A stretch of DNA of 64,000 bases. It comes from Oscillospiraceae bacterium. Its GTDB lineage: Bacteria; Bacillota; Clostridia; Oscillospirales; Oscillospiraceae. The notes below the pieces were generated by a model that saw only the letters and a list, made by a program, of their open reading frames with translations, ran no database searches and was not told the origin of the DNA. Below are positions 5,626-56,413 of the stretch, piece after piece. A program made the position numbers and the translations under genes. Location: NCBI GenBank assembly GCA_024404315.1, contig JAKSQD010000005.1, forward strand, positions 599-64,598, in the 5' to 3' direction. Each line of letters begins with the position of its first letter. Within the stretch, counting starts at the first letter, position 1.

Positions 5626-7071
5626 TTAGAACTGAAAATAAACAAATTCAGCTGCTACTCCTTTCTGCGAAAAGAACACGATGATCCATCCCAGGCAGAG
5701 ATACACAAGCCAACGAATGACCACGTTTTTCTTGCTGATTTCCTGAATAACATCCACTTGGAGGGAGAAATAATCATAGGCGGCCATCATGAAAATCAAG
5801 CAAGCCTCTTTCAAGAGGATGAATTTCTCCATTTCGATGGCGGCAAGGCCATCCTTCACATAGGCCAGCGGTGCGCTGATTCCGGTGAACAAGTGGCTGA
5901 TAACATAAAAAGCGTCTTGAACAGAATGAGACACAAAGAAAATCCACGCAAATGAGGCAAAGGCAAAGACAAACGCCACTCGAACCAGCCAGAAAATCCC
6001 TTTGCTCCGTCTTTTAATGGTTTGTTTGGGAACCAGAATGGATTCTACCACCTGGCCAGCGCCATGGATGCCGCCCCACAGTACAAAGGTCCAGTTGGCT
6101 CCATGCCACAATCCGCTGACCAAAAAGACAATCATCAGGTTGAGGTGATATCTGATTTTACTGACACGATTGCCGCCCAAGGGAATATAGACGTAATCCC
6201 GAAACCAGGTGGACAAGGAAATATGCCAGCGACTCCAGAATTCTTTGATGCTCTGGGAAAAATAAGGGCTTTTGAAGTTGGTCATCAGATTGATGCCCAG
6301 CAGCTTGGAGGTTCCAATGGCAATGTCGGAATATCCCGAAAAGTCACAATAAATTTGCAGGGTGAAAAACAGGGTAGCAAGTACAAGGGCAAAGCCGGAA
6401 AAGTTTTGGGGCGCATCATACACCCAACTGACATACGGAGAAAGGGTATCTGCAATGACAATTTTCTTGAAATATCCCCAGGCTATCAGCTTTAAGCCAT
6501 AGGTTGCCTGGTTATAATCAAAGGTGTGGTGTTTTTTTATCTGGGGGAGCAGATTGCTGGTTCTCTCGATGGGGCCAGCGACCAGCTGCGGAAAAAACGA
6601 AATAAAAGCGGCATAGTATCCAAAATGGCGTTCTGCCGCCACATCGCCTCGATACACATCAATGACATAGCTCAAGGTTTGGAAGGTATAGAAGGAAATT
6701 CCAACCGGCAGCAGCAAGTTTAAGGTAATGGGATTCATTTTGATGGCGAACAACGCCAGAAAATCGGCAACGGAACCGCTTACGAAATTAAAATACTTAA
6801 AGAAGAACAGCACGCCCAAACACAAAACCGCAGTGCCCACCAGAATCCATTTTTTTCGTTTTTGCATTTCTTCCTGTTCCAGCAGTCTGGCCGCTCCATA
6901 AGAAATGATGGTGGTAAACAGGATGAGAAACACATACTTTGCGTTCCAGCTCATATAAAAATAATAGCTGGCAAGCAGAATCAAAATCCACCGGTATTTG
7001 TGTGGCAACGCCCAATAGAGAGCAAAGACAATGGGCAAAAAAAGAGCAAAGGCAAATGAATTAAACAGCAT
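5626..7071 (-). CDS. MBOAT family O-acyltransferase (AlgI/PatA/DltB-like)
   Basis: LPVGISFYTFQ, FFPQLVAGPIER, WHISLSTWFRDYVYIPLGGNR, GLWHGANWTF. Confidence 0.95.
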   Translation of the reverse strand: MLFNSFAFALFLPIVFALYWALPHKYRWILILLASYYFYMSWNAKYVFLILFTTIISYGAARLLEQEEMQKRKKWILVGTAVLCLGVLFFFKYFNFVSGSVADFLALFAIKMNPITLNLLLPVGISFYTFQTLSYVIDVYRGDVAAERHFGYYAAFISFFPQLVAGPIERTSNLLPQIKKHHTFDYNQATYGLKLIAWGYFKKIVIADTLSPYVSWVYDAPQNFSGFALVLATLFFTLQIYCDFSGYSDIAIGTSKLLGINLMTNFKSPYFSQSIKEFWSRWHISLSTWFRDYVYIPLGGNRVSKIRYHLNLMIVFLVSGLWHGANWTFVLWGGIHGAGQVVESILVPKQTIKRRSKGIFWLVRVAFVFAFASFAWIFFVSHSVQDAFYVISHLFTGISAPLAYVKDGLAAIEMEKFILLKEACLIFMMAAYDYFSLQVDVIQEISKKNVVIRWLVYLCLGWIIVFFSQKGVAAEFVYFQF

Positions 7072-9728: not shown

Positions 9729-11056
9729 GCCTGTACCTCCTCTTCCGCAATCTCAACTTGCGCAGTCTCAACAGCGGGCTGTTCCAGCCCCTTGAGGTAG
9801 TAAACGGTATCCAGCTTCCACTGGCTGGCGGAACGCATCGCGTCTTCTCGGGTGACGTGTTCCAGTGCGGAGGAAATTTCCTGTGGGGTGAGCTTCAATT
9901 CTGAAACCGCCTGACTGAGCCAATAGTCCTCCTGTGCACTTTGGCTATCCAAAATGGTGCGGAATGTGCTGGAAACAGCGTCCTTTGCTGCTTGCAGGTC
10001 GCTTTCTGAGAAATCGCCCTCTCGAACCGCCTCCAACTGAGCGAGAATTTCGGTCTCCGCCTGCTCAAAGTCCTCAAACTTCATGCCGGACTGCACAAAG
10101 AGCAGCCCCTTGTGCTTATCCGTCACGGAACTGGCGTAATAGCACAGAGAAAGGCGTTCCCGGACATTCTGGAACAGCTTGGAAGTGGGCAATCCACCAA
10201 AAATGGCGTTGGCTACCACCATAGCGGGATAGCCCATGCTGTTCAGCGTGCAGCCGGTGCGGAAGCCCATGACTAACTTACCCTGGGTCACGTCCAGATG
10301 CTCGGTGACACGTCGCACCTCATCTCCGGCGGTCTTGCGCCAATCGGTGGAAAGCTCACAGCGTTCATTGCTGCGGGGAAGCTCCATCAGTGCCTCCCGC
10401 CACGCCTGCTCCACCCGTTTGGGGTCGGCGGAGCCGCAGTAATAGGCTTCCACACGAGCGGTAGAGAGCACCTGGCGGTAATGCTGGGTCAGCTTAACCA
10501 CGCCAATTTTCTTGGCGGAGCTGAGGTCGCCCAAACGATCCACGCCGTAAGCCTCTCCGGCGCACATCTCCTCAGTCAGACGCTGGCGGGCATACTGTCG
10601 CTTGTCATTGACAGAGCTGCGGATATCATCCATCAGATTTTTTCGCTCACTGACCACATAATCATTGCGGAGACGGCCATTTTTGGTAGCGGGACGGAGC
10701 AGCAAATCACCCATCATCCGAGCGGCACGATCCAACAAGGGCAAATCGTCTGGAACCAGGCCATCATCCAAAAAGGTTGCCACAAAACCAAAGCTCTGAA
10801 CCTCGCCTCGTTTGGTGACGGTAGGCTCAATGACACCGCCATACAGCTCGTCTAAGGCGGCGGAAAGCTGTTCCATGGTGGGATAATGAACCGTACCACG
10901 GCGGAGCACTCTGGGAAGAACCGCATTGAAAGCGGCAGTTTCCTTTTTCAAAGGAAGAATCAACCGTAAGGACCAGAAACTGCTTTTGAATTTTTTTGTC
11001 TGAATGCAGGTCAGACCAACTCCCGGGGAAAGCTCGATTCGGGAAACATCCTGCAT
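9725..11056 (-). CDS. ymfF: M16 family inactive-type peptidase subunit (YmfF-like)
   Basis: TKKFKS, L.ELYG, SKLFQNVRERLSLCYYASS; paired with ymfH; start set at ATG 11056 by SD GAGGTG. Confidence 0.85.
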   Translation of the reverse strand: MQDVSRIELSPGVGLTCIQTKKFKSSFWSLRLILPLKKETAAFNAVLPRVLRRGTVHYPTMEQLSAALDELYGGVIEPTVTKRGEVQSFGFVATFLDDGLVPDDLPLLDRAARMMGDLLLRPATKNGRLRNDYVVSERKNLMDDIRSSVNDKRQYARQRLTEEMCAGEAYGVDRLGDLSSAKKIGVVKLTQHYRQVLSTARVEAYYCGSADPKRVEQAWREALMELPRSNERCELSTDWRKTAGDEVRRVTEHLDVTQGKLVMGFRTGCTLNSMGYPAMVVANAIFGGLPTSKLFQNVRERLSLCYYASSVTDKHKGLLFVQSGMKFEDFEQAETEILAQLEAVREGDFSESDLQAAKDAVSSTFRTILDSQSAQEDYWLSQAVSELKLTPQEISSALEHVTREDAMRSASQWKLDTVYYLKGLEQPAVETAQVEIAEEEVQA

Positions 11057-11089
11057 AGAGATCACCTCTCATTTCAACTCATTGTCCCC

Positions 11090-11118
11090 ATTATACTAAA
11101 CCTTGGTTCAGTTGGCAA
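11090..11118 (-). promoter_or_regulatory. sigma-A promoter for ymfF-ymfH-lgt
   Basis: Minus strand TTGCCA-17 bp-TATAAT. Confidence 0.7.
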
Positions 11119-11224
11119 CAATTCGCTTTGGATTTCTTTTGACAAGGGCACAAAAACCCGGCGCATTCCACATTCCACGAAATACGCCAGGTTCAATGGT
11201 GAACAGTATGTTTGAAAATTGCTT

Positions 11225-11740
11225 TTAGCGAGTCAGCTTCAGCAGCTGCGCTCCCTGGGTCACTTCGCCGGAAGCATCCAGGTCGATGGTTTTGAAGTCA
11301 TCGGTGTTCAGGACAGCGGCAATCACAATGGCAGGATAACCGGCGGCTCTGATTTGATCCACGTCCACCTCCAGAAGAGCATCCCCTTCCTTGACCTTTT
11401 GTCCCTCACGAACCAGAGCTTGAAAGCCCTTTCCCTTCATCTCTATGGTGTCAACGCCCACATGAAGGATGATCTGCACGCCGTTTTCTCCGGCGACGCC
11501 AAGCGCATGGAAGGACGATGCCACCTGCATAATCGTACCGGTAAAGGGAGATTTGACCTCCACGATACCGCCGGTCGGCTCAATGCCGCAGCAAAAACCC
11601 ATTGCGCCGCTGTTAAAAGCTGCGTCGGGAATGTCCTTCATGGAAACAACAGTACCAGAAACCGGAGCAACAGCGGACACAGAGGAAGGATAGACCCGTT
11701 CTGCCTGCTTCTTTTTATTGAAAAAATCGAAAAAGCCCAT
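11225..11740 (-). CDS. Stand-alone PTS glucose-family EIIA component
   Basis: APVSG.VV.M..IPD.AF, HALG, ILHVGVDT..MKG.GF. Confidence 0.9.
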   Translation of the reverse strand: MGFFDFFNKKKQAERVYPSSVSAVAPVSGTVVSMKDIPDAAFNSGAMGFCCGIEPTGGIVEVKSPFTGTIMQVASSFHALGVAGENGVQIILHVGVDTIEMKGKGFQALVREGQKVKEGDALLEVDVDQIRAAGYPAIVIAAVLNTDDFKTIDLDASGEVTQGAQLLKLTR

Positions 11741-27527: not shown

Positions 27528-27611
27528 TCAATCATTCAAGGATTGTTACAAAAATTACAAATCGTAACCAAGCTATCAGAAATCCAAACATCTGACTCGG
27601 AGGTTTTGTTC

Positions 27612-28733
27612 ATGTCTCACCAAAGTTCCGCAGCAGCAAAGGACTGGTTCTCTGTCATCCTTCGTCTGACCGTTGTGTTCGCAATGGTTCTGGCATTTGT
27701 TTTTTCCGCAAACGCAAAAAGCATTTATACCATTCAGGCCGATTCCTCCATTTTTACCGTGGAATCTGAAAGCCTGGAGGAAGAACAGTTAAATGATCGT
27801 GAAGTGATGACCGGCATTTTAAATGAGGCTGGCGTGGATATTAATTCCACCGATCAGATTATCCCCATCGGTTATGTGGACAGCGGTGACAGCTCTTTGG
27901 ATCCGGTGCTGGAAGTAACCGTCACCCGTGCGCAATACGCCACTGTCACCGTGGACGGCGCTTTCTCCACCACGCTGCTGCAAGAAGGCGATACCGCCCA
28001 GGATTTGATTGACCGCCTGAACATTGAGTTGGGCGAATTTGACATCATCACCCTCAACGGCGAAGATATCAGCAAAGACCTAAGCGTAGCCGTGGCGGGC
28101 AATGATTCCATCTCCATCAGCCGAGTGGAAATCAGCTATTTTGATAAGGTAAAGGAATTTGGATATGATTCCTACCGGGTGGCAGACCCCTATAGCTCCA
28201 TCGGTACCGAGTACATCAAGCAATATGGCTCCAAAGCCAAAAAAACGACCACTTATAAAAAGACCATCGTGGACGGCGGCAAGCCTGTGGTGAAGAAGGT
28301 CAATACCGAGTATGTGGACGCTGTGGACGAAATCACGGCCTACGGTACCAGAGTTTCCTTCCCGGAGCTTTCCAGTCTGAGCGCTTCTCGTACCTACATC
28401 ACCAACCGAGACGAGGCGGAAAAAACCATCACCCTTTCAGATGGTTCCACTTACGGCTACAGCTCCATTCAGAGCTTTACCGCTACCGCTTACACCTCTA
28501 ACAATGGCCGCACCTCTACTGGCCGCACCGCTCAGGTCGGCGTGGTGGCGGTGGATCCCAACGTGATTCCTTATGGTACGCTGATGTATATTTACAGCGG
28601 CGGCATTAACTACGGTGTCTGCGTCGCCGGTGACTGCGGCGTTCACGGAAGAACCATTGACCTGTATTATAATTCCTCTTCTGCGTGCTACTCCTTTGGA
28701 CGCAGAGACATCACGGTTTACTTCCTGAACTGA
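27612..28733 (+). CDS. Cell-wall protein with ubiquitin-like/G5 and 3D domains (YabE-like)
   Basis: Signal/TM region; G5-like segment; ATAYT, T.TGR, VAVDP.VIPYGT, AGDCG, IDLY. Confidence 0.9.
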   Translation: MSHQSSAAAKDWFSVILRLTVVFAMVLAFVFSANAKSIYTIQADSSIFTVESESLEEEQLNDREVMTGILNEAGVDINSTDQIIPIGYVDSGDSSLDPVLEVTVTRAQYATVTVDGAFSTTLLQEGDTAQDLIDRLNIELGEFDIITLNGEDISKDLSVAVAGNDSISISRVEISYFDKVKEFGYDSYRVADPYSSIGTEYIKQYGSKAKKTTTYKKTIVDGGKPVVKKVNTEYVDAVDEITAYGTRVSFPELSSLSASRTYITNRDEAEKTITLSDGSTYGYSSIQSFTATAYTSNNGRTSTGRTAQVGVVAVDPNVIPYGTLMYIYSGGINYGVCVAGDCGVHGRTIDLYYNSSSACYSFGRRDITVYFLN

Positions 28734-28754: not shown

Positions 28755-28793
28755 AAACAGCTCTCGGTTGCACGCCGAGAGCTGTTTCTTTTT
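28755..28793 (+). terminator. Rho-independent terminator after the 3D gene; marks the left edge of the cas block
   Basis: AAACAGCTCTCGG-7 nt-CCGAGAGCTGTTT CTTTTT. Confidence 0.85.
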
Positions 28794-28997: not shown

Positions 28998-30566
28998 ATG
29001 AGCATTCAGACAACACCGGAGGTACTGACCATTCTGGAAGTGACCCAAAAACAGGCTTATATCTTCGGAGATAAGCACCTGATGGAGAATGTTAAGCGTT
29101 CCAGCCTGATTGAAGTGGTCACATCTCCCCGTTTTTTTAAATCCATCCCTGACAGCGGATATCAGCCGGACAACCTGGTCTATGCAGGCGGCGGTCATAC
29201 CATTTTGCAATTTGACAGCGCCGACAGCGCCAGACACTTTGTTCAGGCTGTGACCCGCAAAGCATATCTGGATCATGGGATTGAGCTATTTGCAAAAACC
29301 ATCCCCTACCGCACCGACCAAACACCCGGCCAAAACATGAAAGCGCTCATACAGGCATTGGAGAAGAAAAAGAGCCTGCGTCTCTTAGCCTTCCGTCAAC
29401 ACGGAATCGGACTGGAAAAAGAGAAGGAAAGAACCATCCCTATGCCGAACATCCCAGAAGAAGAGCCGGAAACTGAAAAGGCAAAGAAAAGAAAAGCCGA
29501 AGAAAACCTGAAACAGTTGGAATTCCCCACTGAAATCAAAACACTGTGTGGGAAGGATAACTTCTTCGCCGTGGTTCACATTGATGGCAACGGCATGGGC
29601 GCAAAATCTCAAGCTGTCACCGAAAAGGCAGGAAACGATTGGAATAGCTGCTGTGAAAAACACAGAGCGTTCAGTGATGATGTGGATCACTCTTTCAAAA
29701 AGGCTCTGCGCTCTGTGGTGGAGCTGGTAGATTATCACCGCTGGTATGGTACCTTTGAGAAGCTGGGCTTTGACAGTCAGAGCGAAATTGTTCCAATTAG
29801 ACCGCTCATCTGTGCCGGTGACGATGTAACCTTCCTCGTTCCTGCCTCCATCGCCTTGGAATGCGCCGCCTCCTATCTGCGGACACTGGATGAACAGACT
29901 GATGGGAGATATTCTGCTTGCGCCGGAATTGCAATGGTTCATCAGAAGTATCCCTTCCACCGTGCCTATGATCTGGCCGAGCATCTGTGCGACAGCGCCA
30001 AGCGTTACGCCGCCGAGCTGGCAGAAAAAGCCGACAACAATCAAGAGCGCATTGCCACGATGGATTGGCACATGGAGTTTGGTCAGGGTAAGAGTACATT
30101 GGGGGCAATTCGTGAGGATTATCTCACCGACGAGAGTGGAAACGGCACGAAGGAGGCTCCCGTTTCCACGATGACCCTTCGCCCGCTGTGCGTGAATGGT
30201 TTCTATGAGACCCCCTACCGCACCTATGATTTCTTTATCCGCCTGTTTGAGCTGCTGACAAAGGAAAAGTATCCACGCAGCAAGGTGAAGGGGTTGCGTG
30301 AAACGCTGAAAAAGAGTGAAGAGCAAATTCAGGTGTATCTCAGAAAGAACCAAATTCAAAAGCTTACCAAGCTGGGGATGCAGGCGGAGAGAGAGGATGC
30401 CGTCCGGTATGTCTATGAACAGGGCAAAATCTTGGCCGCTGTGAGTACCATCTGTGAGGAGCGAGCAGAGGGACATCAGACGCAGTTTGTCCGACGCAGG
30501 CTTTATTTCGATGTCATCGAGCTGATGGATCGTATGATTCTGCTGAGAAAGGAGGAAGAGGCATGA
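28998..30566 (+). CDS. cas10: Cas10 large subunit, HD-less (type III-D/Dv-like), palm motif AGDD
   Basis: KQAYIF N-terminal motif, VVHIDGNGMG, RPLICAGDDVTFL, SACAGIA, YPF..AY.LAE.L; 522 aa with no HD domain. Confidence 0.9.
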   Translation: MSIQTTPEVLTILEVTQKQAYIFGDKHLMENVKRSSLIEVVTSPRFFKSIPDSGYQPDNLVYAGGGHTILQFDSADSARHFVQAVTRKAYLDHGIELFAKTIPYRTDQTPGQNMKALIQALEKKKSLRLLAFRQHGIGLEKEKERTIPMPNIPEEEPETEKAKKRKAEENLKQLEFPTEIKTLCGKDNFFAVVHIDGNGMGAKSQAVTEKAGNDWNSCCEKHRAFSDDVDHSFKKALRSVVELVDYHRWYGTFEKLGFDSQSEIVPIRPLICAGDDVTFLVPASIALECAASYLRTLDEQTDGRYSACAGIAMVHQKYPFHRAYDLAEHLCDSAKRYAAELAEKADNNQERIATMDWHMEFGQGKSTLGAIREDYLTDESGNGTKEAPVSTMTLRPLCVNGFYETPYRTYDFFIRLFELLTKEKYPRSKVKGLRETLKKSEEQIQVYLRKNQIQKLTKLGMQAEREDAVRYVYEQGKILAAVSTICEERAEGHQTQFVRRRLYFDVIELMDRMILLRKEEEA

Positions 30567-32608
30567 GTAAGCGCATCAAAATCACCCTCAAGCTGGAAAG
30601 TGATACCATCATCGGCAGTGGATACAGAATCCCAGGCGGTGAGGATATCGCTGTCAGAAAAGACAGCAAGGGCTATCCTTATCTCCCCGGCGAGACGCTG
30701 AAAGGACTGCTCCGGGAGTCTCTGGAAGACCTTTTGGATTGGGAATATGCGGGCGAGGGGATGGTAAGAGCAACGGACTACTTCGGCGCACGTCAGGAAA
30801 GCCGCAATGCGGAGGAAAGCTGGCATGGAAACACCTGCCCGAAGCAAATTTTTGTCTCTCCCCTCCTCTTGGATGCTCCTCCCGAAGATGTGGACACCTG
30901 CTTCGGTGAGCGAATCTTCACCAGCCTAGAAAACGGCATCATCAAGGATGGTTCGCTCCGAGTGGCCTCTTGTGTCCGCAAGGGACTGACCTTTTCCGGC
31001 GCTGTCACCTGTGAATCGGATGATAGGGCTGACCTGGAGCTGGTAGAGGATGCGCTGCTGGGTATCAAGGCCATAGGAACCAGCCGCACCCGTGGTTTCG
31101 GTAAGGTTCATATACAGATTGGAGAATGGGAGGATGTGGCTTCCTCCAACACGGAAACGGAAATCGGAGCCGGAAACCATCTTTGCTATCGGGTTCGCCT
31201 GAATGAGCCCGTCCGTATCACCAGCCGCAACGACAGCCATGATACCTTCCTTGCCAGCCAGAACCACATCCCCGGCTCCGCTGTGCGGGGAGCTGTGCTG
31301 AACGCCCTGGCCAAAAAGGATCCCCAATGGTTCGAAGACAACAAGCGGTTTTTGTTGAAAAAGGCTTGCTTTGGGAATCTGCTTCCCGATAATGGCCACG
31401 AAGAGTCAGCGGTGATTCCCACCCCCAAGGGCTTCTACGCCGACAAGCTGGGCGATGACTTTTATCATTTTCTCACAGCGGGTGACGTGAAATCCAACAC
31501 CAAACGAGCCAAGCTGGGAGCTTTTGCGGTTTTGGACATGGAAAAGGGTCAGATTGACAGTTGGTCTTCTAAAACGGGCGAACATACCCGCATCAACCTC
31601 AAGCTGCAAAAGGATGCTTCCACCGAAAGCGGCGGCATGTTTCAGGCCAGTTGGCTGGAAGCGGATCAGACTGCCTCTGGTGTCATCTCCCTGCCCGAGA
31701 ACACCCCTGACGAAACGAAACGGCGCATCCATGCCGTTTTGAGCGGTGAAATTCGCTTCGGAGCTAGTGTTCACTCTGGTTTGGGGCTGTGTCAGGTTCT
31801 GAGTGAAGCATGGAAAGAGCAAATGCCGGAGCAGTGCTACAGCTATCAGCCTGGTGATACCATCAAACCGGTGTTGTATTTGATGCTGCTGTCTCCGCTG
31901 GCGCTGGTGAATGAATACGGTGAGCCTTGCGGCATCAGCAAGGAGCTTTTGAGCGAAAAGCTGAGGGTTTCCGTTACTGAGCTGATGTGCGCCACCTCTG
32001 TGACGGAGCGCCAAGGCTTTAACCGCACGCTGGGAATCCGGCTGCCGCCCACGCTGGTCTATGACAGCGGCTGTACCTTCCGCCTGACCTGTGACGCAGC
32101 GCCTACGCTGGATGCCATCCGACAACTGGAGCGAAACGGCTTGGGCATTCGCCAGGCGGAGGGCTTTGGACGGGTGGTATTTCTCAAGGATTTGGAGAAA
32201 ATCAAGGAAAAGGCCCCTCCCAAGCAGAAAACCGTTGCTCCGATGACCGAAAGCAAGCGGAAGGAACAGGCAAAAACCATCTGGCTGATTGAAAATCCCC
32301 TTCCCGAGGGACTCTCTAACAGTCAGATTGGAAAATTGGAGGAGCAATGCCGTGTTGCTGCTCTTTATCCCGATGATGCAGTGAGTACTCTGAATCAGTG
32401 GTTTGACAAGCTCATTGAGCGTAACGATCATGATGAAGGCACCTATGGAGACATTCAGAACTTTGTGAAGTGGGTTTTGACGGATGAGGCCATTCCTGTG
32501 GACACGGTGAAAGACCGTCTGAGCCTGTTAATCGACCTCATTCGATACGAGAGAAAGGAGGACAATGAAAAATGGCATCCTTTACCTATGCAAAACGCTA
32601 TCAAGTGA
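30563..32608 (+). CDS. Cas7-Cas5(Csx10-like)-Cas11-like fusion RAMP
   Basis: Cas7: PYLPGETLKGLLR, G-loop IGTSRTRGFG. Cas5: IPGSAVRGA, G-loops HSGLG and GIRQAEGFG. Helical C-terminus with LSNSQI. Confidence 0.82.
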   Translation: MSKRIKITLKLESDTIIGSGYRIPGGEDIAVRKDSKGYPYLPGETLKGLLRESLEDLLDWEYAGEGMVRATDYFGARQESRNAEESWHGNTCPKQIFVSPLLLDAPPEDVDTCFGERIFTSLENGIIKDGSLRVASCVRKGLTFSGAVTCESDDRADLELVEDALLGIKAIGTSRTRGFGKVHIQIGEWEDVASSNTETEIGAGNHLCYRVRLNEPVRITSRNDSHDTFLASQNHIPGSAVRGAVLNALAKKDPQWFEDNKRFLLKKACFGNLLPDNGHEESAVIPTPKGFYADKLGDDFYHFLTAGDVKSNTKRAKLGAFAVLDMEKGQIDSWSSKTGEHTRINLKLQKDASTESGGMFQASWLEADQTASGVISLPENTPDETKRRIHAVLSGEIRFGASVHSGLGLCQVLSEAWKEQMPEQCYSYQPGDTIKPVLYLMLLSPLALVNEYGEPCGISKELLSEKLRVSVTELMCATSVTERQGFNRTLGIRLPPTLVYDSGCTFRLTCDAAPTLDAIRQLERNGLGIRQAEGFGRVVFLKDLEKIKEKAPPKQKTVAPMTESKRKEQAKTIWLIENPLPEGLSNSQIGKLEEQCRVAALYPDDAVSTLNQWFDKLIERNDHDEGTYGDIQNFVKWVLTDEAIPVDTVKDRLSLLIDLIRYERKEDNEKWHPLPMQNAIK

Positions 32609-33870
32609 CGGCACGCTGTGTCTCCCCTCTGCGTACCGGCGGAATCGGCGGGGAAAACAACGTCGTTCTAACCAATGTGGACGGTGTACCGATGATTCAG
32701 GCGGCTTCCATTGCCGGTGTCCTCCGCTCTTGGCTGGAAGAGACCAATCCCACCGCCGCAAAAGGGCTGTTCGGTGACTCCAACACGGCAAAAGACAGTG
32801 ACCGAACCAGCAAAGTGACGGTATATGACGGTCTATTCCAAAATGGAACCACGACGCAGCTTCGTTCCCGCCTCCGCATCGACACCAAGACCGGCACAGG
32901 AATGGATCAACACAAGTTTGAGCTGGTGAGCGTTCCAACCGGTTCCCTGTTTACCTTTGAGATGATTTTGAAGGCTCAGAACGAGGAGGAGTTTTCTCAG
33001 GCAGAGCGTTGGCTGGAAGAGACGCTTTCCGCTCTGAATGAAGGTTTTCTCACCCTCGGCGGGCAGTATTCCAACGGCTTCGGCATTGTGAAGCTGGACA
33101 AGGTTGAAGCCTGCACCTTCTGCATGACCAATCGTGAGGACAGGCGGGCATGGCTGGACAACAAGGGCGTTTATGAGGTTCTGACTTCCCTGCCCGACGT
33201 AAAAAGAGAGCTTGTCACCTTCCGTTTGACCGGTGTTTCTGACCATTTTCTGATGAAAGGCGGTACAAGCTTCAAGGATGGTGACAAATCGGTCACAGAT
33301 GCCATGAAAAACCCTGACGGAAGCTATGTTCTGCCGGGTTCCTCTCTCAAGGGCGTTCTCCGTGGCCGGGTGAGCCGCATTGCGGCCTATAAGAATGCTG
33401 AATCTGAGGTAAATGTTCTCTTTGGGCGGGAAAATGACCCCAATATTAAAGGAGATAATGGTCTCCCCGGTCAGCTGCGAGTCAAGGAATACACGCTTCA
33501 AGAGGCAAAGGAACAAATTATCAGCCGCACCCGGCTGGATCGCTTCACCGGCGGCGTGATGCAGAAAAGCCTCTTCAGCGAAAAGACCCTCAGTGACCGG
33601 GTCTATATCACGGTTGAGGTTCGTGCGTCTACGCCCATTGGAAACGCCCTGCTGTTCTACGCCCTGCGAGATATGGCAATGGGGATGTATGCTTTTGGCA
33701 GTGAGAGCAGCGTGGGTCGTGGCTACCTGGTAAAAGAAACCGCCGTTTTGACGGTCTCCATAGGAGAAAAAACCTGTTCCTTTATCTTTGGAAAGGGGAT
33801 AGAAACGGACGGAGACAGCTCGTTTATTCGGCAATGGCTGAACGCACTGGATGGGAAGGAGGAAGGCTGA
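32572..33870 (+). CDS. cas7: Cas7-Cas7 (Csm3-like x2) fusion RAMP
   Basis: Two RAMP units: IQAASIAGVLRS / GGQYSNGFG and LPGSSLKGVLR / TRLDRFTGG / GSESSVGRG. Confidence 0.85.
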   Translation: MASFTYAKRYQVTARCVSPLRTGGIGGENNVVLTNVDGVPMIQAASIAGVLRSWLEETNPTAAKGLFGDSNTAKDSDRTSKVTVYDGLFQNGTTTQLRSRLRIDTKTGTGMDQHKFELVSVPTGSLFTFEMILKAQNEEEFSQAERWLEETLSALNEGFLTLGGQYSNGFGIVKLDKVEACTFCMTNREDRRAWLDNKGVYEVLTSLPDVKRELVTFRLTGVSDHFLMKGGTSFKDGDKSVTDAMKNPDGSYVLPGSSLKGVLRGRVSRIAAYKNAESEVNVLFGRENDPNIKGDNGLPGQLRVKEYTLQEAKEQIISRTRLDRFTGGVMQKSLFSEKTLSDRVYITVEVRASTPIGNALLFYALRDMAMGMYAFGSESSVGRGYLVKETAVLTVSIGEKTCSFIFGKGIETDGDSSFIRQWLNALDGKEEG

Positions 33871-33871
33871 C

Positions 33872-34264
33872 ATGAATGCGAGAGCAAAAGCGCTTTTCCG
33901 TGTGATTTCTCTGAACGACGCCAAGACAGAGGGGCAGTTGCTCCAATGGGTGCTGGTTCGACAACTGAGTGCGGTTGCCATGGGGGAAGTCAGCAAGATT
34001 CCCATTGACTGGGAGGATGTAACAGAGGTTCGCTTTTTTGACGACGAGAAGGAAATCCGCATTTTTGAGAGAGGGGGGAAGCTTTGTGCCGCCGTGATTG
34101 CCGATGTCGCCGAGGATGTGGAGGGTGTGGATTTTCGTGACAGAACCTTCCCCCTGGAACACAAGGGCGTGTTTGGCCAGGAAATCACCATGCGTGAATA
34201 CTTCGATTATGACGAGGATGGTCAAATCTTTGTTGTGGCAACTCGTTTGAAAGGATGGAGGTGA
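33872..34264 (+). CDS. csx19: Csx19 (TIGR03984-like)
   Basis: EVRFFD..KEIRIF, REYFDYDEDGQ....TRL.G; position within the RAMP operon. Confidence 0.8.
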   Translation: MNARAKALFRVISLNDAKTEGQLLQWVLVRQLSAVAMGEVSKIPIDWEDVTEVRFFDDEKEIRIFERGGKLCAAVIADVAEDVEGVDFRDRTFPLEHKGVFGQEITMREYFDYDEDGQIFVVATRLKGWR

Positions 34265-34271
34265 CAGGGAG

Positions 34272-36347
34272 ATGGCAAAGAAAAACAAAAAAGGGAAAGA
34301 GACCTCCAGCAATAAGGTACTTTTGGCGCACCCCATGCGGTATTTCAACAACCCTTATAACTTTGTACCTTTGGAGGAAACGGTTTATGCACGCTATCCT
34401 GACGCAGAATCTCTGCCCTGTCACGACAGCACGCAGGATAACCTTCTCTGTGGGGAAATTCGCTGTACCATCACAGCGGAAACGCCGCTCTCCGTGTCGG
34501 ACGGCAAAGAGGGTTTTTTCCGCAACGCAAAGGGAGATTATGTCATCCCCGGCTCTACGCTCAAAGGTCTGGTGCGGAGCAATATGCAGATTCTTGGCTT
34601 TGGTGCTCTACGCCCGGGTGAGGATTTCAACGATTCCCGCATGATGTATCGTGTAGTTGCCTCCTCCACCGATGGTGTGAAAAAGGAACTCCAAAGAGCA
34701 TATCAAGGCACTTTGGGAATCAAGTCGATTCAGAAAACCAATCCTGTGACCAACAAGCGTTTTTCTTACTCGGTGGCCGAAAACGTAAGGGCGGGCTATC
34801 TGGTTCAGCGTGCGGTGGATCAAAAATATGTCATTTATCCCATGACTTACTATAAGGTCAATCGTGCTCTGGATTGCGCCTCACGCTGGAAAAACCGCTA
34901 CACACAGGTAGAGGAGGTTTGGTATCAGCTCAGTCAAAAAGGAACCGTAACGCAACTGGTTGTAGGCAATCAGCCCCAGCCAGAGGGCACGCTTTCTGGT
35001 CTGCTGGTCTGTACAGGACGAGCGGTGGGAAAACTCCCCAATCACCTTTATCTTCTCCCTGCGTTTGATGCGGCGGTAAAGCCCTTTGAGCTATCCAATG
35101 AGGATATCAAAACCTATTTGACGGACTACGAGCTGCGGAAAAACACCTTAAAGGGAACCGACCGTAACGCTCAGATGGATGCAAGCCATTGGAAACCGCC
35201 TCACCTGGAAAAAGGAAGCAATCAGGATACCAAACCGTGGCCTGTGTTCTACGCAGTATCCGGTAAAAATCATTATTTTGGTCGTTCTCCGTTTCTGCGT
35301 GTGGGCTATCACCATTCCCTCAGAGAAGGACTTCCGCTGGCACATCAGCTGGCGGGGGATTCCCTGATGTTAGATTATCCTTATGCTATGCTGGGCTTTA
35401 CCTGGAGCGAGCCGAATGTGTCCTATCGTTCCAGAGTTTTCTTTGGAGATTTTGTCGCCGACACAAAACCGCTGGAACAAACCATCCCAGTTGTGTTAAG
35501 CAATCCCAAGCCCAGCAGCTTTGCAGATTACACCAAAGACGGCAAAAACTACAACCAGGATTTCCGCATCCGTGGCGTAAAACAGTATTGGCTGAAACAG
35601 GCTCAACAGCTCGAAGTGTCTCTTCAGCAGAGCAAGGTAAAGGATGAATTGAAAGTGATGTCGGAGCAAACCCATTTTTCCGGTGTCATTCGTTTTCATA
35701 ACCTCCATGACGATGAGTTGGGTCTGCTTTTGTGGTCTCTGCGGCTGAACAAAGGATGTTACCAAGGCATCGGCAAAGGAAAGCCGCTGGGATACGGTCG
35801 TTCCACGGTCGTGATTGATTCGGTGGAACAGTATCTCCCCGCCAAGCTCTACTCTGCTGATTGCCTGAACGGCGCAAGCTACACCAAGCCGCTGGACGCT
35901 GACGCTCTGATTGAGACCTATCAAAATCACATCGCCAAGCACCATCTGGACGGAAAAGCCGCCGAGGAACAGCCCTCTGTGAGAGATTTTCTCTTTATCC
36001 GCAGTGTCATTCGAGAGGCGGAGCAGGTTCGTTATTTGAACCTGAAAGAATATCAAAACAGGCAGGAAAAGGAACTCCTTCCCACGGTGGAAGAACAGAG
36101 GAAAAATCCATTGGGTGGTCAGCGTGAATTAAAACCGCTCAAAGAAAACAGGATTATCAAAGGTAAGGTGCTCAAGGTATTCAAAAGAGACCATAAAGCC
36201 GAAATTAAACTCTTTGATTATGATTTGATTGGAACGGTTTTCTTGCATTACGGTCAATGGCTCGAAGCAAAGCAGGTGGTTTCTGTACGAATTCTTCCCG
36301 GCAGCATTCCTGAAAATAACAGGCTGAAATTGGAATTGGTTTGGTGA
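34272..36347 (+). CDS. Cas7 with large insertion (TIGR03986-like RAMP) and C-terminal S1/OB-like domain
   Basis: NPYNFVP, AETPL, IPGSTLKGLVRS, RG.KQYW, IGKGKPLGYG. Confidence 0.85.
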   Translation: MAKKNKKGKETSSNKVLLAHPMRYFNNPYNFVPLEETVYARYPDAESLPCHDSTQDNLLCGEIRCTITAETPLSVSDGKEGFFRNAKGDYVIPGSTLKGLVRSNMQILGFGALRPGEDFNDSRMMYRVVASSTDGVKKELQRAYQGTLGIKSIQKTNPVTNKRFSYSVAENVRAGYLVQRAVDQKYVIYPMTYYKVNRALDCASRWKNRYTQVEEVWYQLSQKGTVTQLVVGNQPQPEGTLSGLLVCTGRAVGKLPNHLYLLPAFDAAVKPFELSNEDIKTYLTDYELRKNTLKGTDRNAQMDASHWKPPHLEKGSNQDTKPWPVFYAVSGKNHYFGRSPFLRVGYHHSLREGLPLAHQLAGDSLMLDYPYAMLGFTWSEPNVSYRSRVFFGDFVADTKPLEQTIPVVLSNPKPSSFADYTKDGKNYNQDFRIRGVKQYWLKQAQQLEVSLQQSKVKDELKVMSEQTHFSGVIRFHNLHDDELGLLLWSLRLNKGCYQGIGKGKPLGYGRSTVVIDSVEQYLPAKLYSADCLNGASYTKPLDADALIETYQNHIAKHHLDGKAAEEQPSVRDFLFIRSVIREAEQVRYLNLKEYQNRQEKELLPTVEEQRKNPLGGQRELKPLKENRIIKGKVLKVFKRDHKAEIKLFDYDLIGTVFLHYGQWLEAKQVVSVRILPGSIPENNRLKLELVW

Positions 36348-36459: not shown

Positions 36460-36619
36460 GGTAACACCGCACAATAGTCGAATGTGCACCTTGCTTGTCC
36501 TTTCACTCCCAAATTTGCCGTAAAACCCTTGAAATACGTCAGTATTCCTGCGGCTTTCCCAACAAATTTGGAAGCAAAATTACTGCGCAATCCGCACATC
36601 CCTATTATGCGGTATTGCC
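36460..36619. mobile_element. 160-bp MITE, copy 1
   Basis: TIRs GGTAACACCGCACAAT / ATTATGCGGTATTGCC; TTTG duplicated on both flanks; second copy at 56254. Confidence 0.9.
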
Positions 36620-36669
36620 TTTGGAAATCCCCCACCACCATTTCGTCTTATTATGGAGTGATTATCACG

Positions 36670-37344
36670 ATGAAAAAATTTCTTATGGTTACGCCCTTAC
36701 AGCCCGTCGGTGTGAATGCGGATGGAACCCCCTTTGACCAGCTTCGTCTGTGTGATTACAAGCCCGTGGGAAATCAAAAGCTGGAATACCACAAGCAAAC
36801 CCGTTTTCCGCTGATGCACCTCATCAACGGCTACGCCGAACCTGGTGAGGAGATTCGAGTGATTGCCATTACGCCCAAGTATGAGTTCTGTCAGGTTCAT
36901 TTGCAGCAGCTTCGGGATGAATTGGCAGAGTTACAGGCGGAAAAGGGCTTTCTCTGCCGTGGTGTAGAAGCCGTTGAGGTAGATTTCGCCGGAGATGTTG
37001 CCACTCAAATTGAAGTGTTCCATCAACTTCTGTCCTATGTGGAGGATGACGACATTCTCTATGGCTGCCTCACCTACGGAATAAAGCCCATGCCCATTGC
37101 CGAGCTGATGGCCATTCAGTATGCTTACCGGGTGCTGAATAACGTTTCCATTGGTTGTCTGGTTTACGGTGAGGTGGATTACAGCCAGCCGCCCATTGGA
37201 AAGACATTCGACGGCAATGATATTTATCCCACCCGTATCTTTGATATCACCGCTCTGATTCAGCTGGATGAGATTGTCCGTGTTCTGGCAGACCGCAAGG
37301 TGGCAAACCCGAAGGGAGTCATTGAACGGATTCTGAGCCTGTGA
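36670..37344 (+). CDS. CARF-only TM1812-like CRISPR-associated protein (224 aa)
   Basis: TRFPL...I, IRVIAI, CLTYGIKPMP (DxTxGxK-like CARF motif), LVYG, FDITALI; no HEPN extension. Confidence 0.65.
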   Translation: MKKFLMVTPLQPVGVNADGTPFDQLRLCDYKPVGNQKLEYHKQTRFPLMHLINGYAEPGEEIRVIAITPKYEFCQVHLQQLRDELAELQAEKGFLCRGVEAVEVDFAGDVATQIEVFHQLLSYVEDDDILYGCLTYGIKPMPIAELMAIQYAYRVLNNVSIGCLVYGEVDYSQPPIGKTFDGNDIYPTRIFDITALIQLDEIVRVLADRKVANPKGVIERILSL

Positions 37345-37347
37345 GGT

Positions 37348-38244
37348 GTGAAGTTATGGCAAAAAAAGAGAACCAACCAAGCAAAGATTCGATTGAACGA
37401 GCTGGGAAAGCAGTGGAAGCTACATTCCCCTGTGGAAGACAAAGCCGTCTGTGAATCCCTCTGGCTGGAAATTTGGGCTGCACTCTTTGATATCTACTAT
37501 CCGTTTTTGAAAACGGAGCCGGAGCTGAACGCTTTTGAAGAAACGATAAAGCAAACCAAAGAAAAATTCGACGCAGAAAAAGGCACACTGTCCGCTTTTT
37601 TCTCCACCCACCTGAGATGGAATACTGCGGACGCAATCGAAAAGGAACTGCGGAAAAATCCCACGGAGCGCATACAGGAAACACCCACCGCTAACGAGTC
37701 TGAACCGGATCGTCCGCCATCCCCTGTCCTATCTGACCCGACGGGAATGGGCGGCATTGACGAAGTGGAAAACCAACTGCTGATGAATGCCGCACTGGTG
37801 GAGCTTTCCAGTCAAATTCTCCATTTTTCAGAAAACCATGGTAAAAAAAGTGGAAATCTCGCTCGGCGCAATTACTTTCAGCTTTTTTATACCTCTGGTG
37901 TTACCAGCCTTGTGAAAATGTCCGAGGAATCTCCCGCTTTTCAGCACCAGCGTGACATTGAGGAAGCAATGAAGCAATCCTTCGTTGACTACTGCATGAT
38001 ACAGCAATGTCAAACCCTTCCTGAAATTTTCTGCGGTGATTTGAAGCAATATGGAGCCGTCGTAGAGGGTTTGCCGGACGGCAAGAGGGAAATGTCCATT
38101 CCACTACCCATTCCCGACCAGGTTGGACGCAGCTATTTAAAGAACGTAAAAGCTCTCAGCGTTTCCAAGAGCACTTATTCTGAGCAGAAATCCGCCTACA
38201 AAGCCGAAATGAAACAGTTCTTGATAGACAAAAGCATTTTTTGA
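37348..38244 (+). CDS. Divergent sigma-70-like protein; start uncertain (GTG 37348 in frame, SD-optimal ATG 37356 out of frame)
   Basis: Region-2-like KFDAEKGTLSAFFSTHLRWNTADAIEKELRK; region-4.1-like RRNYFQLFY; terminal VSKSTYSEQK helix. Confidence 0.5.
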   Translation: MKLWQKKRTNQAKIRLNELGKQWKLHSPVEDKAVCESLWLEIWAALFDIYYPFLKTEPELNAFEETIKQTKEKFDAEKGTLSAFFSTHLRWNTADAIEKELRKNPTERIQETPTANESEPDRPPSPVLSDPTGMGGIDEVENQLLMNAALVELSSQILHFSENHGKKSGNLARRNYFQLFYTSGVTSLVKMSEESPAFQHQRDIEEAMKQSFVDYCMIQQCQTLPEIFCGDLKQYGAVVEGLPDGKREMSIPLPIPDQVGRSYLKNVKALSVSKSTYSEQKSAYKAEMKQFLIDKSIF

Positions 38245-38323: not shown

Positions 38324-38545
38324 ATGCTCGCTCAATTGATTCACACCCCTGCCTTTCATACCCTCCTCATAATCCTGGGCTGCATGATGCTGCTGCTCCT
38401 TGTGGTGGCGACCATCATACTGGCAGCAATTGCCCTCATCAACGCAATCGTGCAATTCTTCGTACAGCATTGGAGAACGCTCACCAATATCAGCCTGTGT
38501 ATTGTCATCATGGGTGTGATAATCCTGCTTTTTGCTCCCGTATAA
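38324..38545 (+). CDS. Small two-helix membrane protein (73 aa)
   Basis: Strong SD AGAAAGGAG; two hydrophobic segments. Confidence 0.6.
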   Translation: MLAQLIHTPAFHTLLIILGCMMLLLLVVATIILAAIALINAIVQFFVQHWRTLTNISLCIVIMGVIILLFAPV

Positions 38546-38710: not shown

Positions 38711-39985
38711 TTATCTTTTGACTCTGCGCTTATTTCCTGGGGTATAGAGCACACTGTTACGCTGAGGCTGAGAGGTCGTATGGTTACGAGGTCTGTGCTG
38801 CTTATTTTGGGGCGGAAGCTCATCCGGTGTCTCGGTGTTTCGCACCCAATCTGGGTCACTTCGACTTCGAATGCCAGAAACCAAGCCCATTATCATAAAG
38901 TTGACCACCAGAGAAGTACCGCCTGCGGAAAAAAAGGGCAGGGTAACGCCGATAACCGGCATGACGAAAAGGCACATACCCAAGTTAAAACCAATCTGAG
39001 CAACAAACATACCAACGAATCCAAAGCAAATGAGGCTGTGGCAGGTATCGTTGCAGATAAAACCGATGTAGAGAATTCGCAGCAGAATCAGCGTCAAGAG
39101 GAGAATGACGATGGACGCTCCAACCATTCCCCACTCTTCGCAGCAGGTGGAGAAAATAAAGTCGTTGGTTCGTTCCGGGAGGCGAGAGCTTTGTGGATTC
39201 TGGGTCGTGATTCCCTTCATATACCCTTGTCCAAAGAAACCGCCGGAGCGAATAGCGGCGATGGAACGGAGCTGGTGCATGGAGACACCTTGGGGATCCA
39301 GCTCGTGGTCAAACAAGGTAAGAATACGGGCTTTATGGGTTTCATCATCTGGGATGATGGGCCAAACCACTCGAATTGCCGCCGTTAAAGAGGCAATGCC
39401 AAAGGCAAACCACAGCTTACTCAATCCAGCCCCCCACACCATAAACACAAAGATGAGGACAAAGATCAGGGCAGAGCCAAAGTCTTTGGAGAAAAACACG
39501 ACGATACCCGCAAAAAATCCCAGGGTGACACACATCAAAAGCACCGACGAAAGACGATTGATGACCTTTTGGCGTTTGAGATAGGTCAGCATATGAGCCA
39601 GGACGACGCAGAAGAATATTTTAACGATCTCGGCTGGCTGAATGGTCAGGCCTGTGCCCGGAATCATCAGCCAAGCGGTGTTGCCGTTCTGACTATACTT
39701 GAGCGGAGTTTTTAACAGTGCCATGAGCACAAAGCTGCCAAAGGTTACGAGCTTCCACTTCTGCCGCAGGATGTCAATATTAAACTGGCTAACGGCGAAA
39801 TAAAGAACGATGCCAGCGCACATCATGATGGCTTGTTTAAAGGGCATTCCATGGAGAACCGTTTTATATCGACTGGCGGAGTAAATCAGGATGACACCAT
39901 AGGAGCTGGCCGCAACGCAGAGCGCAAGCAGGATTTTATCCGCCTGTTTGAACGCATCCAGGATCAGATCACGCAAAGCAGACAT
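38711..39985 (-). CDS. FtsW/RodA/SpoVE (SEDS) family protein
   Basis: IQPAEIVK, KDFGSAL, LPERTNDFIFS..CEEWG, N.GM.L..MPV.GVTLPFFSAGGTS; start at ATG 39985 after SD GAGGTG. Confidence 0.92.
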   Translation of the reverse strand: MSALRDLILDAFKQADKILLALCVAASSYGVILIYSASRYKTVLHGMPFKQAIMMCAGIVLYFAVSQFNIDILRQKWKLVTFGSFVLMALLKTPLKYSQNGNTAWLMIPGTGLTIQPAEIVKIFFCVVLAHMLTYLKRQKVINRLSSVLLMCVTLGFFAGIVVFFSKDFGSALIFVLIFVFMVWGAGLSKLWFAFGIASLTAAIRVVWPIIPDDETHKARILTLFDHELDPQGVSMHQLRSIAAIRSGGFFGQGYMKGITTQNPQSSRLPERTNDFIFSTCCEEWGMVGASIVILLLTLILLRILYIGFICNDTCHSLICFGFVGMFVAQIGFNLGMCLFVMPVIGVTLPFFSAGGTSLVVNFMIMGLVSGIRSRSDPDWVRNTETPDELPPQNKQHRPRNHTTSQPQRNSVLYTPGNKRRVKR

Positions 39986-40141
39986 TTTGCCACCTCGTTT
40001 TCTTTTGAATTTTAGAGTTATTTTATCACAGACTTTTGGACGTGTAAACGAAATTTTTGTAAATAAGAAGGGAAGCCCTTTGAAGATGGAAAAGAAGATG
40101 GAAAAAACGATGCTGTTTCCAGCACCGTTTCCGTTCAAACT

Positions 40142-40484
40142 GCAAGTAAGCCTATAAGCCGGGTTCTGTTTTGACAGCCATCTATCTCGACCTGCCATTG
40201 CTGACAGGCTCAAGCCACCCCCACGGAACGGCCGGGCCGGCCTATTGTTCCCCCACGGTGTTGCTCCGAATAGAGTTTACAGAACGGAGCTGTTCCCAGT
40301 CCGTTGGTGAGCTCTTACCTCACCTTTCCACCCTTACCGGCATACAACCGGCGGTATATCTCTGTTGCACTTGTCCTGAAGTCGCCTTCGGCGGGCGTTA
40401 CCCGTTATTCTTGCCCTATGGAGCCCGGACTTTCCTCACCGACGGACGTTTCCCTCCGGCGGCGCGGCTGTCCAGCTTGCTTGC
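40142..40484 (-). ncRNA. rnpB: RNase P RNA
   Basis: Minus strand contains GAGGAAAGTCCGGGCTCC...AGTGCAACAGAG...CAGAACCCGGCTTA; termini are complementary. Confidence 0.97.
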
Positions 40485-56253: not shown

Positions 56254-56413
56254 GGCAACACCGCACAATCGTCGAATGTGCGCCTTGCTTGTCCTTTCAC
56301 TCCCAAATTTGCCGCAAAACCCTTGAAATACGTCAGTATTCCTGCGGCTTTCCCAACAAATTTGGAAGCAAAATTACTGCGCAATCCGCACATCCCTATT
56401 ATGCGGTATTGCC
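56254..56413. mobile_element. 160-bp MITE, copy 2
   Basis: TIRs GGCAACACCGCACAAT / ATTATGCGGTATTGCC; ATAA duplicated on both flanks; 4 differences from copy 1. Confidence 0.9.

Follow-up and report, generated by a model that had tools for sequence, protein, structure and literature searches.

A type III-Dv CRISPR effector operon in an Oscillospiraceae genome that encodes cas6 at a separate locus

The DNA analysed here, referred to as the window, is a 64,000-nucleotide stretch of contig JAKSQD010000005.1 from an Oscillospiraceae bacterium (GenBank assembly GCA_024404315.1, positions 599 to 64,598 of the forward strand). A block of five genes in the window is an intact CRISPR effector operon and belongs to type III-Dv. 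We favor, with moderate confidence, a reading in which this operon belongs to a working but dispersed III-Dv interference-and-signalling module, with cas6 encoded in trans and guides most likely supplied by a type I-C array. The isolation of the operon is mostly a matter of locus dispersal; relatives show the ordinary arrangement in cis. The lack of an array or a cas6 gene in the window is largely an effect of window size.

A reading made earlier from the letters of the window (the sequence-only reading) had described five coupled genes, running from an HD-less cas10 to a cas7 with an insertion. The map of open reading frames (ORFs) and the family matches agree with this description. All five ORFs are on the + strand, and their ends overlap or abut:

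28998-30566, + strand: cas10, 522 aa; matches PF22335 (second palm domain), E 1.7e-12
30563-32608, + strand: fusion of cas7, cas5 (csx10) and a helical tail, 681 aa; RAMP at 8-182, Csx10/TIGR02674 at 442-548
32572-33870, + strand: cas7-2x, 432 aa; matches PF03787 (RAMP) in two stretches, best Protein Data Bank (PDB) match 8s9t_D
33851-34264, + strand: csx19; matches TIGR03984 at 44.8 bits, with a cut-off of 35
34272-36347, + strand: cas7-insertion, 691 aa; matches TIGR03986 at 284 bits, with a cut-off of 161

The subunit order had also been likened to III-Dv of Synechocystis, and it is indeed identical to that of the published operon of Synechocystis sp. PCC 6803 (CRISPR2; PDB 8s9t; PMC11026444). 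The two systems share Csx19, a Cas7 with a large insertion and an HD-less Cas10 with two palm aspartates. Cas10, Cas7-Cas5-Cas11 and Cas7-2x of Synechocystis are each the best or only PDB sequence match of their counterpart in the window. However, the sequences are very distant, with phmmer E values of 1e-7 to 1e-15 over partial lengths.

Cas10 lacks the HD region. Its first palm motif is VVHIDGNGMG (HIDGNG) and its second is AGDD, which is aligned to GGDD in its sole PDB match, the Synechocystis III-Dv Cas10 (8s9t_C). In an alignment, the AGDD motif is common to the whole clade (L023, L012 and L011). It is a motif variant of Cas10 proteins from loci with a known effector, and these have been judged likely active cyclases (PMC11229360).

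In the fusion protein, the TIGR02674 match is under the curated cut-off (E 3.5e-21). Its best PDB match is 8s9t_A, 'Cas7-Cas5-Cas11'. D28 is aligned with the catalytic D26 of the Synechocystis protein, and the catalytic aspartate is thus kept. The protein is 110 aa shorter than that of Synechocystis, and its C-terminal helical tail (545-681, 137 aa), where Cas11 is expected, is presumed to be cas11. The sequence search of the PDB found nothing for this tail or for Csx19, and nothing for the two downstream proteins described below, a CARF protein and a sigma-like protein. In Cas7-2x, the context of the second-domain aspartate (VTDAMK) is conserved. Public gene calls start csx19 at 33872, which gives 130 aa, and annotate it as PF27799. 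The Cas7-insertion match spans profile positions 1-565 of the 568 in TIGR03986, and the PDB matches of this protein are Cas7-11 and 8s9t_E.

Unlike its Synechocystis counterpart, Cas7-insertion has an additional C-terminal extension of about 110 aa (window 35990-36347) that falls outside the TIGR03986 profile and, judged from its sequence, looks like an S1/OB RNA-binding domain. The extension is missing from the G022 homologue (603 aa). One distant homologue, P0085, carries Pfam S1 (PF00575).

Fused Cas7 modules and an HD-less Cas10 are also found in type III-D2 (Cas7x3, Cas7-5, Cas10 and CorA, with S-adenosylmethionine-AMP (SAM-AMP) signalling; PMC13294483), and both III-D2 and III-Dv are regarded as intermediates towards III-E. 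In contrast to III-D2, the window has Cas7-2x, a separate Cas7-insertion and Csx19, and no Cas7x3, CorA, NrN or toxin-antitoxin module. A III-D2 or SAM-AMP identity was ruled out by the absence of Cas7x3, CorA and NrN.

The operon is open and apparently maintained. Counting the two downstream genes described below, none of the seven genes is interrupted in either of two strains, and pN/pS is roughly 0.2. Among the 38 coding positions shown in the strain comparison, 24 differences are synonymous and 14 non-synonymous, and none creates a stop. This synonymous excess indicates purifying selection and disfavors the relic considered in the sequence-only reading. In the metatranscriptome X20, contigs that are all 100% identical except one cover cas10 to cas7-insertion, as well as a junction at another locus that joins an MJ1673-like gene and a cas6 gene.

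That locus lies on contig C63. The source assembly (G000) is 2.6 Mb in 140 contigs and 98% complete. As the sequence-only reading had stated, neither Tandem Repeats Finder nor k-mer scans detect an array in the window, and the genome-wide search for cas genes shows no cas6, cas1 or cas2 in it; the same search found no cas1 or cas2 anywhere in the 98%-complete assembly. The sole PF01881 Cas6 match of the genome is on a contig other than that of the window. There are two cas6 genes, both on C63, where they flank a complete III-A operon (csm1-csm5):

L003 (C63) 10756-11490: cas6-1, upstream of the III-A csm operon

Cas6-1 shares 69% identity with the Cas6 found next to the III-Dv operon of L023, the closest homologous one, whose core proteins are 58-74% identical to those of the window. 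Directly upstream of cas6-1 is an MJ1673-like gene (PF27247), 58% identical to the copy that lies within the operon in relatives. With both genes on C63, the 'missing' cas6 is thus present in trans, accompanied by a further part of the ancestral locus. Cas6-2 shares 38% identity with the Cas6 next to the III-Dv operon and 21-repeat array of G022.

The III-A locus has several features of its own. Csm1 (L003 13600-15702) has an N-terminal HD motif (residue 15), and its second palm motif is SGVDD (GVDD) instead of GGDD. The GVDD variant is outside the published list of likely active variants (PMC11229360). Judged by these motifs, the III-A module may be nuclease-only, and the III-Dv Cas10 may be the cyclase of the cell. 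Between cas6-1 and csm1, L003 12134-13447 encodes a protein of 437 aa that carries a WCX domain (known as a C-terminal extension in WYL regulators) and may be a CRISPR-linked regulator. The end of cas6-2 overlaps a gene fragment (L003 19511-19834) for the C-terminal part of a 6-phospho-beta-glucosidase, which suggests that the III-A cassette inserted into, or truncated, a bgl gene.

The relatives show how the pieces are ordinarily arranged. Arrays stand beside the III-Dv operon in three congeners (G022, G013 and G001) and in metagenomic relatives:

G022: 21-repeat array and cas6 beside the operon
G013: arrays on both sides of the operon
G001: arrays on both sides of the operon
L023: one repeat where the contig starts, plus a mini-array next to cas6; the repeat in operon orientation is GAGTTACCTTACCTGTACGCAGAGATTGAAAC
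L025: 7 repeats, GATACGCCTTACCCGTGTGTGGAGATTGTTAC in operon orientation; older copies end in ATTGAAAC

The 8-nt tags ATTGAAAC and ATTGTTAC of the relatives both occur within one array. The four upstream effector genes are visible in L023 and L024, and the MJ1673-like gene lies between cas7-insertion and the CARF gene in L023, L024 and L025. The CARF gene is kept beside III-Dv in these three and in L012 and L013, and CARF and sigma-like genes together accompany the III-Dv operons of G013, G001, L023 and L025. The L024 contig ends after the CARF gene. L023 continues past the sigma-like gene with a 74-aa ORF, the mini-array and cas6. The window locus has neither a cas6 nor an array of its own in cis, which is a feature of the locus and not of the effector complex. 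The sequence-only reading had held that an array and cas6 elsewhere in the genome, or adjacent to the operon in relatives, would make this an ordinary split locus. A cas6 is found elsewhere and arrays are adjacent in relatives, but this genome has no clear cognate array.

The sole array in the assembly has 7 repeats (GTCGCCCCTCTCGCAGGGGCGTGAATTGAAAT) and 6 spacers. It is of type I-C, lies across the overlapping ends of contigs C131 and C3, and is preceded by cas3-cas5c-cas8c-cas7c and a shortened cas4. Matches of cas5c, cas8c and cas7c are above curated cut-offs, as is cas3, which was assigned through the Cas3 core and HD models.

L004 (C131) 6542-6894 joined to L001 (C3) 1-455: part of the I-C locus, in which cas4 breaks off directly at the first repeat, about 100 aa in

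With cas4 cut off and cas1 and cas2 absent, the adaptation half of the I-C system is gone; its interference half is complete. The last 8 bases of the I-C repeat, ATTGAAAT, are identical at 7 of 8 positions to the relatives' CRISPR RNA (crRNA) tag ATTGAAAC. Outside the I-C array, no ATTGAAAC-type tag was found on a structured or repeat-like element. The sequence-only reading had proposed that Cas6 and crRNA are borrowed from a distant locus. Cas6-1 bears out the first part. For the second, the only array is the I-C one, similar in its tag and unlike in the body of its repeat.

A megablast search of 50,697 phage records gave no match to the array region. A strain in run X2 whose cas operon diverges by 0.4% also carries this I-C repeat, at about 7-10x depth, and 0 of the 6 spacers (L001 1-700). 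Such wholly different spacers in close strains indicate that the content of the array turns over, despite the absence of cas1 and cas2 here.

The sharing of guides between types has a precedent. Silas and colleagues are said to have found in 2017 that the III-B system of Marinomonas mediterranea uses I-F arrays. In both cases, an array-less type III effector is found in a genome with an array-bearing type I system, and the end of the type I repeat could meet the tag requirement of type III. In contrast to M. mediterranea, the donor here would be an I-C array, normally cut by Cas5c and not by Cas6, and the sharing is a candidate. If it occurs, RNAs bound to the complex would be about 37 nt long and start with AUUGAAAU.

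Contrary to the sequence-only reading, the unit runs on past the end of cas7-insertion at 36347. A CARF gene, a sigma-like gene and a 73-aa membrane ORF follow on the + strand, and these are conserved partners in relatives. The surroundings of the operon are as follows:

27543-28733: 3D/G5 cell-wall gene, upstream neighbour of the operon
28758..28790, + strand: hairpin cagctctcggttgcacgccgagagctg followed by ttt (T-run), read from the sequence; upstream boundary of the unit, after the 3D/G5 gene
36460..36621, strand not assigned: miniature inverted-repeat transposable element (MITE), 162 bp, with 18-bp terminal inverted repeats GGTAACACCGCACAATAG
36670-37344, + strand: CARF-fold gene, 224 aa, no effector domain
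37348-38244, + strand: divergent sigma-70-like gene, 298 aa; two helical domains and a disordered linker
38324-38545, + strand: small hydrophobic ORF, 73 aa, from translation
38711-40213, - strand: ftsW/rodA, convergent downstream neighbour

The AlphaFold2 model of the CARF-fold protein has a pLDDT of 95.2. In a Foldseek search of the PDB, every one of its top 30 matches is a CARF protein (Csx1, Csa3, Csm6 and ring nucleases), with E values down to 7e-6, probability 1.0 and TM scores of 0.4-0.57. There is also a weak match to TIGR02221. The modelled fold makes this CARF-only protein a probable sensor of cyclic oligoadenylate (cOA). The earlier statement that csm6 and csx1 are absent is literally true, but a CARF protein of the cOA-sensor type is present downstream. 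Here the locus differs from Synechocystis III-Dv, which has Csx1/Csm6 in place of the CARF-only and sigma-like proteins, and a cas6, adaptation genes and an array in cis.

The assignment of the next protein to sigma-70 is weak. Sigma70_r2 (PF04542) is matched by 10 of the 75 members of its family and r3 by 5 of the 75. The family profile places SigA, ECF SigE and SigK on top in the PDB, with E about 0.008-0.03. The window protein itself has no Pfam match, and a Foldseek search with its model found nothing significant. In the X2 strain, insertions of A and AACC (net 5 nt) are found within the first eight codons of the gene (window 37360-37370), which implies that in this strain another start codon is used or the N-terminus is frameshifted. 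From its translation, the 73-aa ORF probably encodes a small membrane protein; a 74-aa ORF is at the equivalent position in L023.

In the CalpL-CalpT-CalpS system too, which signals from cOA to a sigma factor (PMC11229360; bioRxiv 10.1101/2024.05.08.593097), a type III locus is linked to a protein resembling a sigma factor and to a sensor domain for cyclic nucleotides. By analogy, the pairing of a sigma-like protein with a sensor suggests a transcriptional output. Unlike that system, the window locus has no SAVED-Lon protease or recognisable anti-sigma factor, its sensor is the 224-aa CARF-only protein, and its sigma assignment is the weak one given above (family-level Pfam matches, profile E about 0.01).

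The MITE sits at the junction where the window locus departs from its relatives. It occupies the slot of the MJ1673-like gene, between cas7-insertion and the CARF gene. In the genome it has 59 BLAST matches, of which 36, spread over 29 contigs, are near-full copies with identities of 92-99%; a second copy in the window is at 56254-56413. Its read depth is about 85x that of single-copy flanks in two metagenomes. Its activity looks recent, and contigs often break because of it. Five independent public assemblies end inside it, exactly 139 bp past the stop codon of cas7-insertion, because this 162-bp MITE lies there. An array hidden after cas7-insertion, suggested by these shared ends, was ruled out since the site is the multicopy MITE.

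Homologues of the operon occur in only 3 of 24 congeneric species, at 41-45% identity; other gut metagenomes contain closer ones, at 55-77% identity. Between L024 and the window, the CARF genes (L024 7701-8135 and window 36670-37104) are 94% identical, whereas the core genes share about 66% identity. This speaks for horizontal transfer and for recombination that exchanged the accessory module at the junction marked by the MITE. An ftsW/rodA homologue is present in 25 of 25 congeners. In the four closest, none of the genes neighbouring it in the window is beside it. Flanking synteny is thus not kept in the nearest species, and the insertion cannot be delimited. The 264-bp spacer upstream of cas10 contains no repeats, and a fuzzy search found no degenerate repeats in the three intergenic flanks. 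Away from the operon, window 370-873 contains tandem repeats of 81-99 bp and 18-24 bp, probably in a low-complexity, Gly/Ser-rich coding region.

The favored reading predicts the following mechanism, modelled on the III-Dv complex, in which subunits in a 1:1 ratio sit on a crRNA of fixed length and cut RNA at three sites. By analogy with Synechocystis, the five proteins would assemble 1:1 around a crRNA cut by Cas6, and the complex would cleave complementary RNA at the aspartate sites of the Cas7 domains. Upon target binding, the HD-less Cas10 with its AGDD palm would make cOA. In Synechocystis, the III-Dv Cas10 makes cOA that activates Csx1 (PMC11026444). Here the CARF-only protein would sense cOA and relay the signal to the adjacent sigma-like protein, leading to a transcriptional response. 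The guides would most likely come from the I-C array (repeat end ATTGAAAT), cut by either of the trans-encoded Cas6 proteins, or alternatively from an array absent from the assembly. A bolder version of this scheme is, in our judgment, doubtful. In it, with every adaptation gene gone from the genome, one six-spacer I-C array would feed I-C Cascade, III-A Csm and III-Dv; III-Dv would accept hairpin-type I-C crRNA; and the CARF-only cOA reader would directly control the divergent sigma factor, a protease-free form of CalpS-type signalling.

Several observations weigh against a working module fed by the I-C array. The I-C repeat folds into a strong hairpin of -12.9 kcal/mol, has 12 nt past the stem and is without CCTTACC, whereas the repeats that accompany this type of cas6 have CCTTACC in common and form weak structures (-0.4 to -5 kcal/mol). 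It is therefore doubtful that Cas6-1 processes the I-C repeat. The enzyme that normally cuts I-C arrays is Cas5c, which leaves an 11-nt handle. A fuzzy search with the relatives' repeats and with CCTTACC...ATTGWWAC found no cognate-type repeat at internal sites or contig ends of the assembly. The first-domain loop of Cas7-2x is GGENN, compared with GGDND in L023 and L024. The X20 RNA depth is only 1-5, at which DNA carry-over is possible, and no X20 RNA contig covers the CARF or sigma-like genes.

The guides could instead come from a cognate array that exists on the real chromosome and was missed by the 140-contig assembly, being collapsed, unbinned or strain-variable. The assembly is fragmented, assemblies often break at arrays, the I-C array lies at a contig break as well, and spacer content is wholly different between strains. 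We nevertheless regard a missed array as unlikely. Contigs here overlap by 55 bp, so a full repeat would be expected at the end of any contig abutting an array; the CCTTACC...ATTGWWAC repeat is at 0 of 280 contig ends and 0 internal sites, and the ends share no other repeat-like motif. In two further metagenome assemblies, the III-Dv locus and the cas6/III-A locus are each contiguous and array-free, at an equal depth of about 56-69. The completeness of 98% also argues against it.

The operon might also be a guide-less orphan heading to decay, which lost its arrays and adaptation genes, has no crRNA and persists because the loss is recent. The absence of cas1, cas2 and any cognate-type repeat from the assembly would fit such a history, as would the shortened I-C cas4, the displaced MJ1673-like gene with a MITE at the junction and the acidic residues replaced in the first Cas7-2x loop. 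An orphan would not be expected to show seven genes open in two strains with a 24:14 synonymous excess, a cognate cas6 and MJ1673-like gene kept intact and an operon represented in the metatranscriptome, and we give this explanation a low probability. We consider it very improbable that the complex uses a non-canonical guide, an RNA not derived from an array, for instance one transcribed from the abundant MITE or made by a host RNase. Synechocystis III-Bv uses RNase E in place of Cas6, and a MITE lies inside the operon here; nothing else in this genome supports the idea, which the sequence-only reading had raised. The intact cognate-type cas6, the ordinary arrays of the relatives and the lack of any repeat-like element with a ATTGAAAC-type tag outside the I-C array all speak against it.

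To our knowledge, III-Dv has been studied only in Synechocystis. The window operon belongs to a distant, apparently functional III-Dv clade in gut Firmicutes-type bacteria, which has its own accessory set: the MJ1673-like gene and the CARF-only, sigma-like and small membrane proteins. This genome is a natural test case for whether III-Dv can be programmed from an I-C array or by a Cas6 encoded elsewhere. It also raises the question of how effector modules persist after losing their adaptation module and their own arrays.

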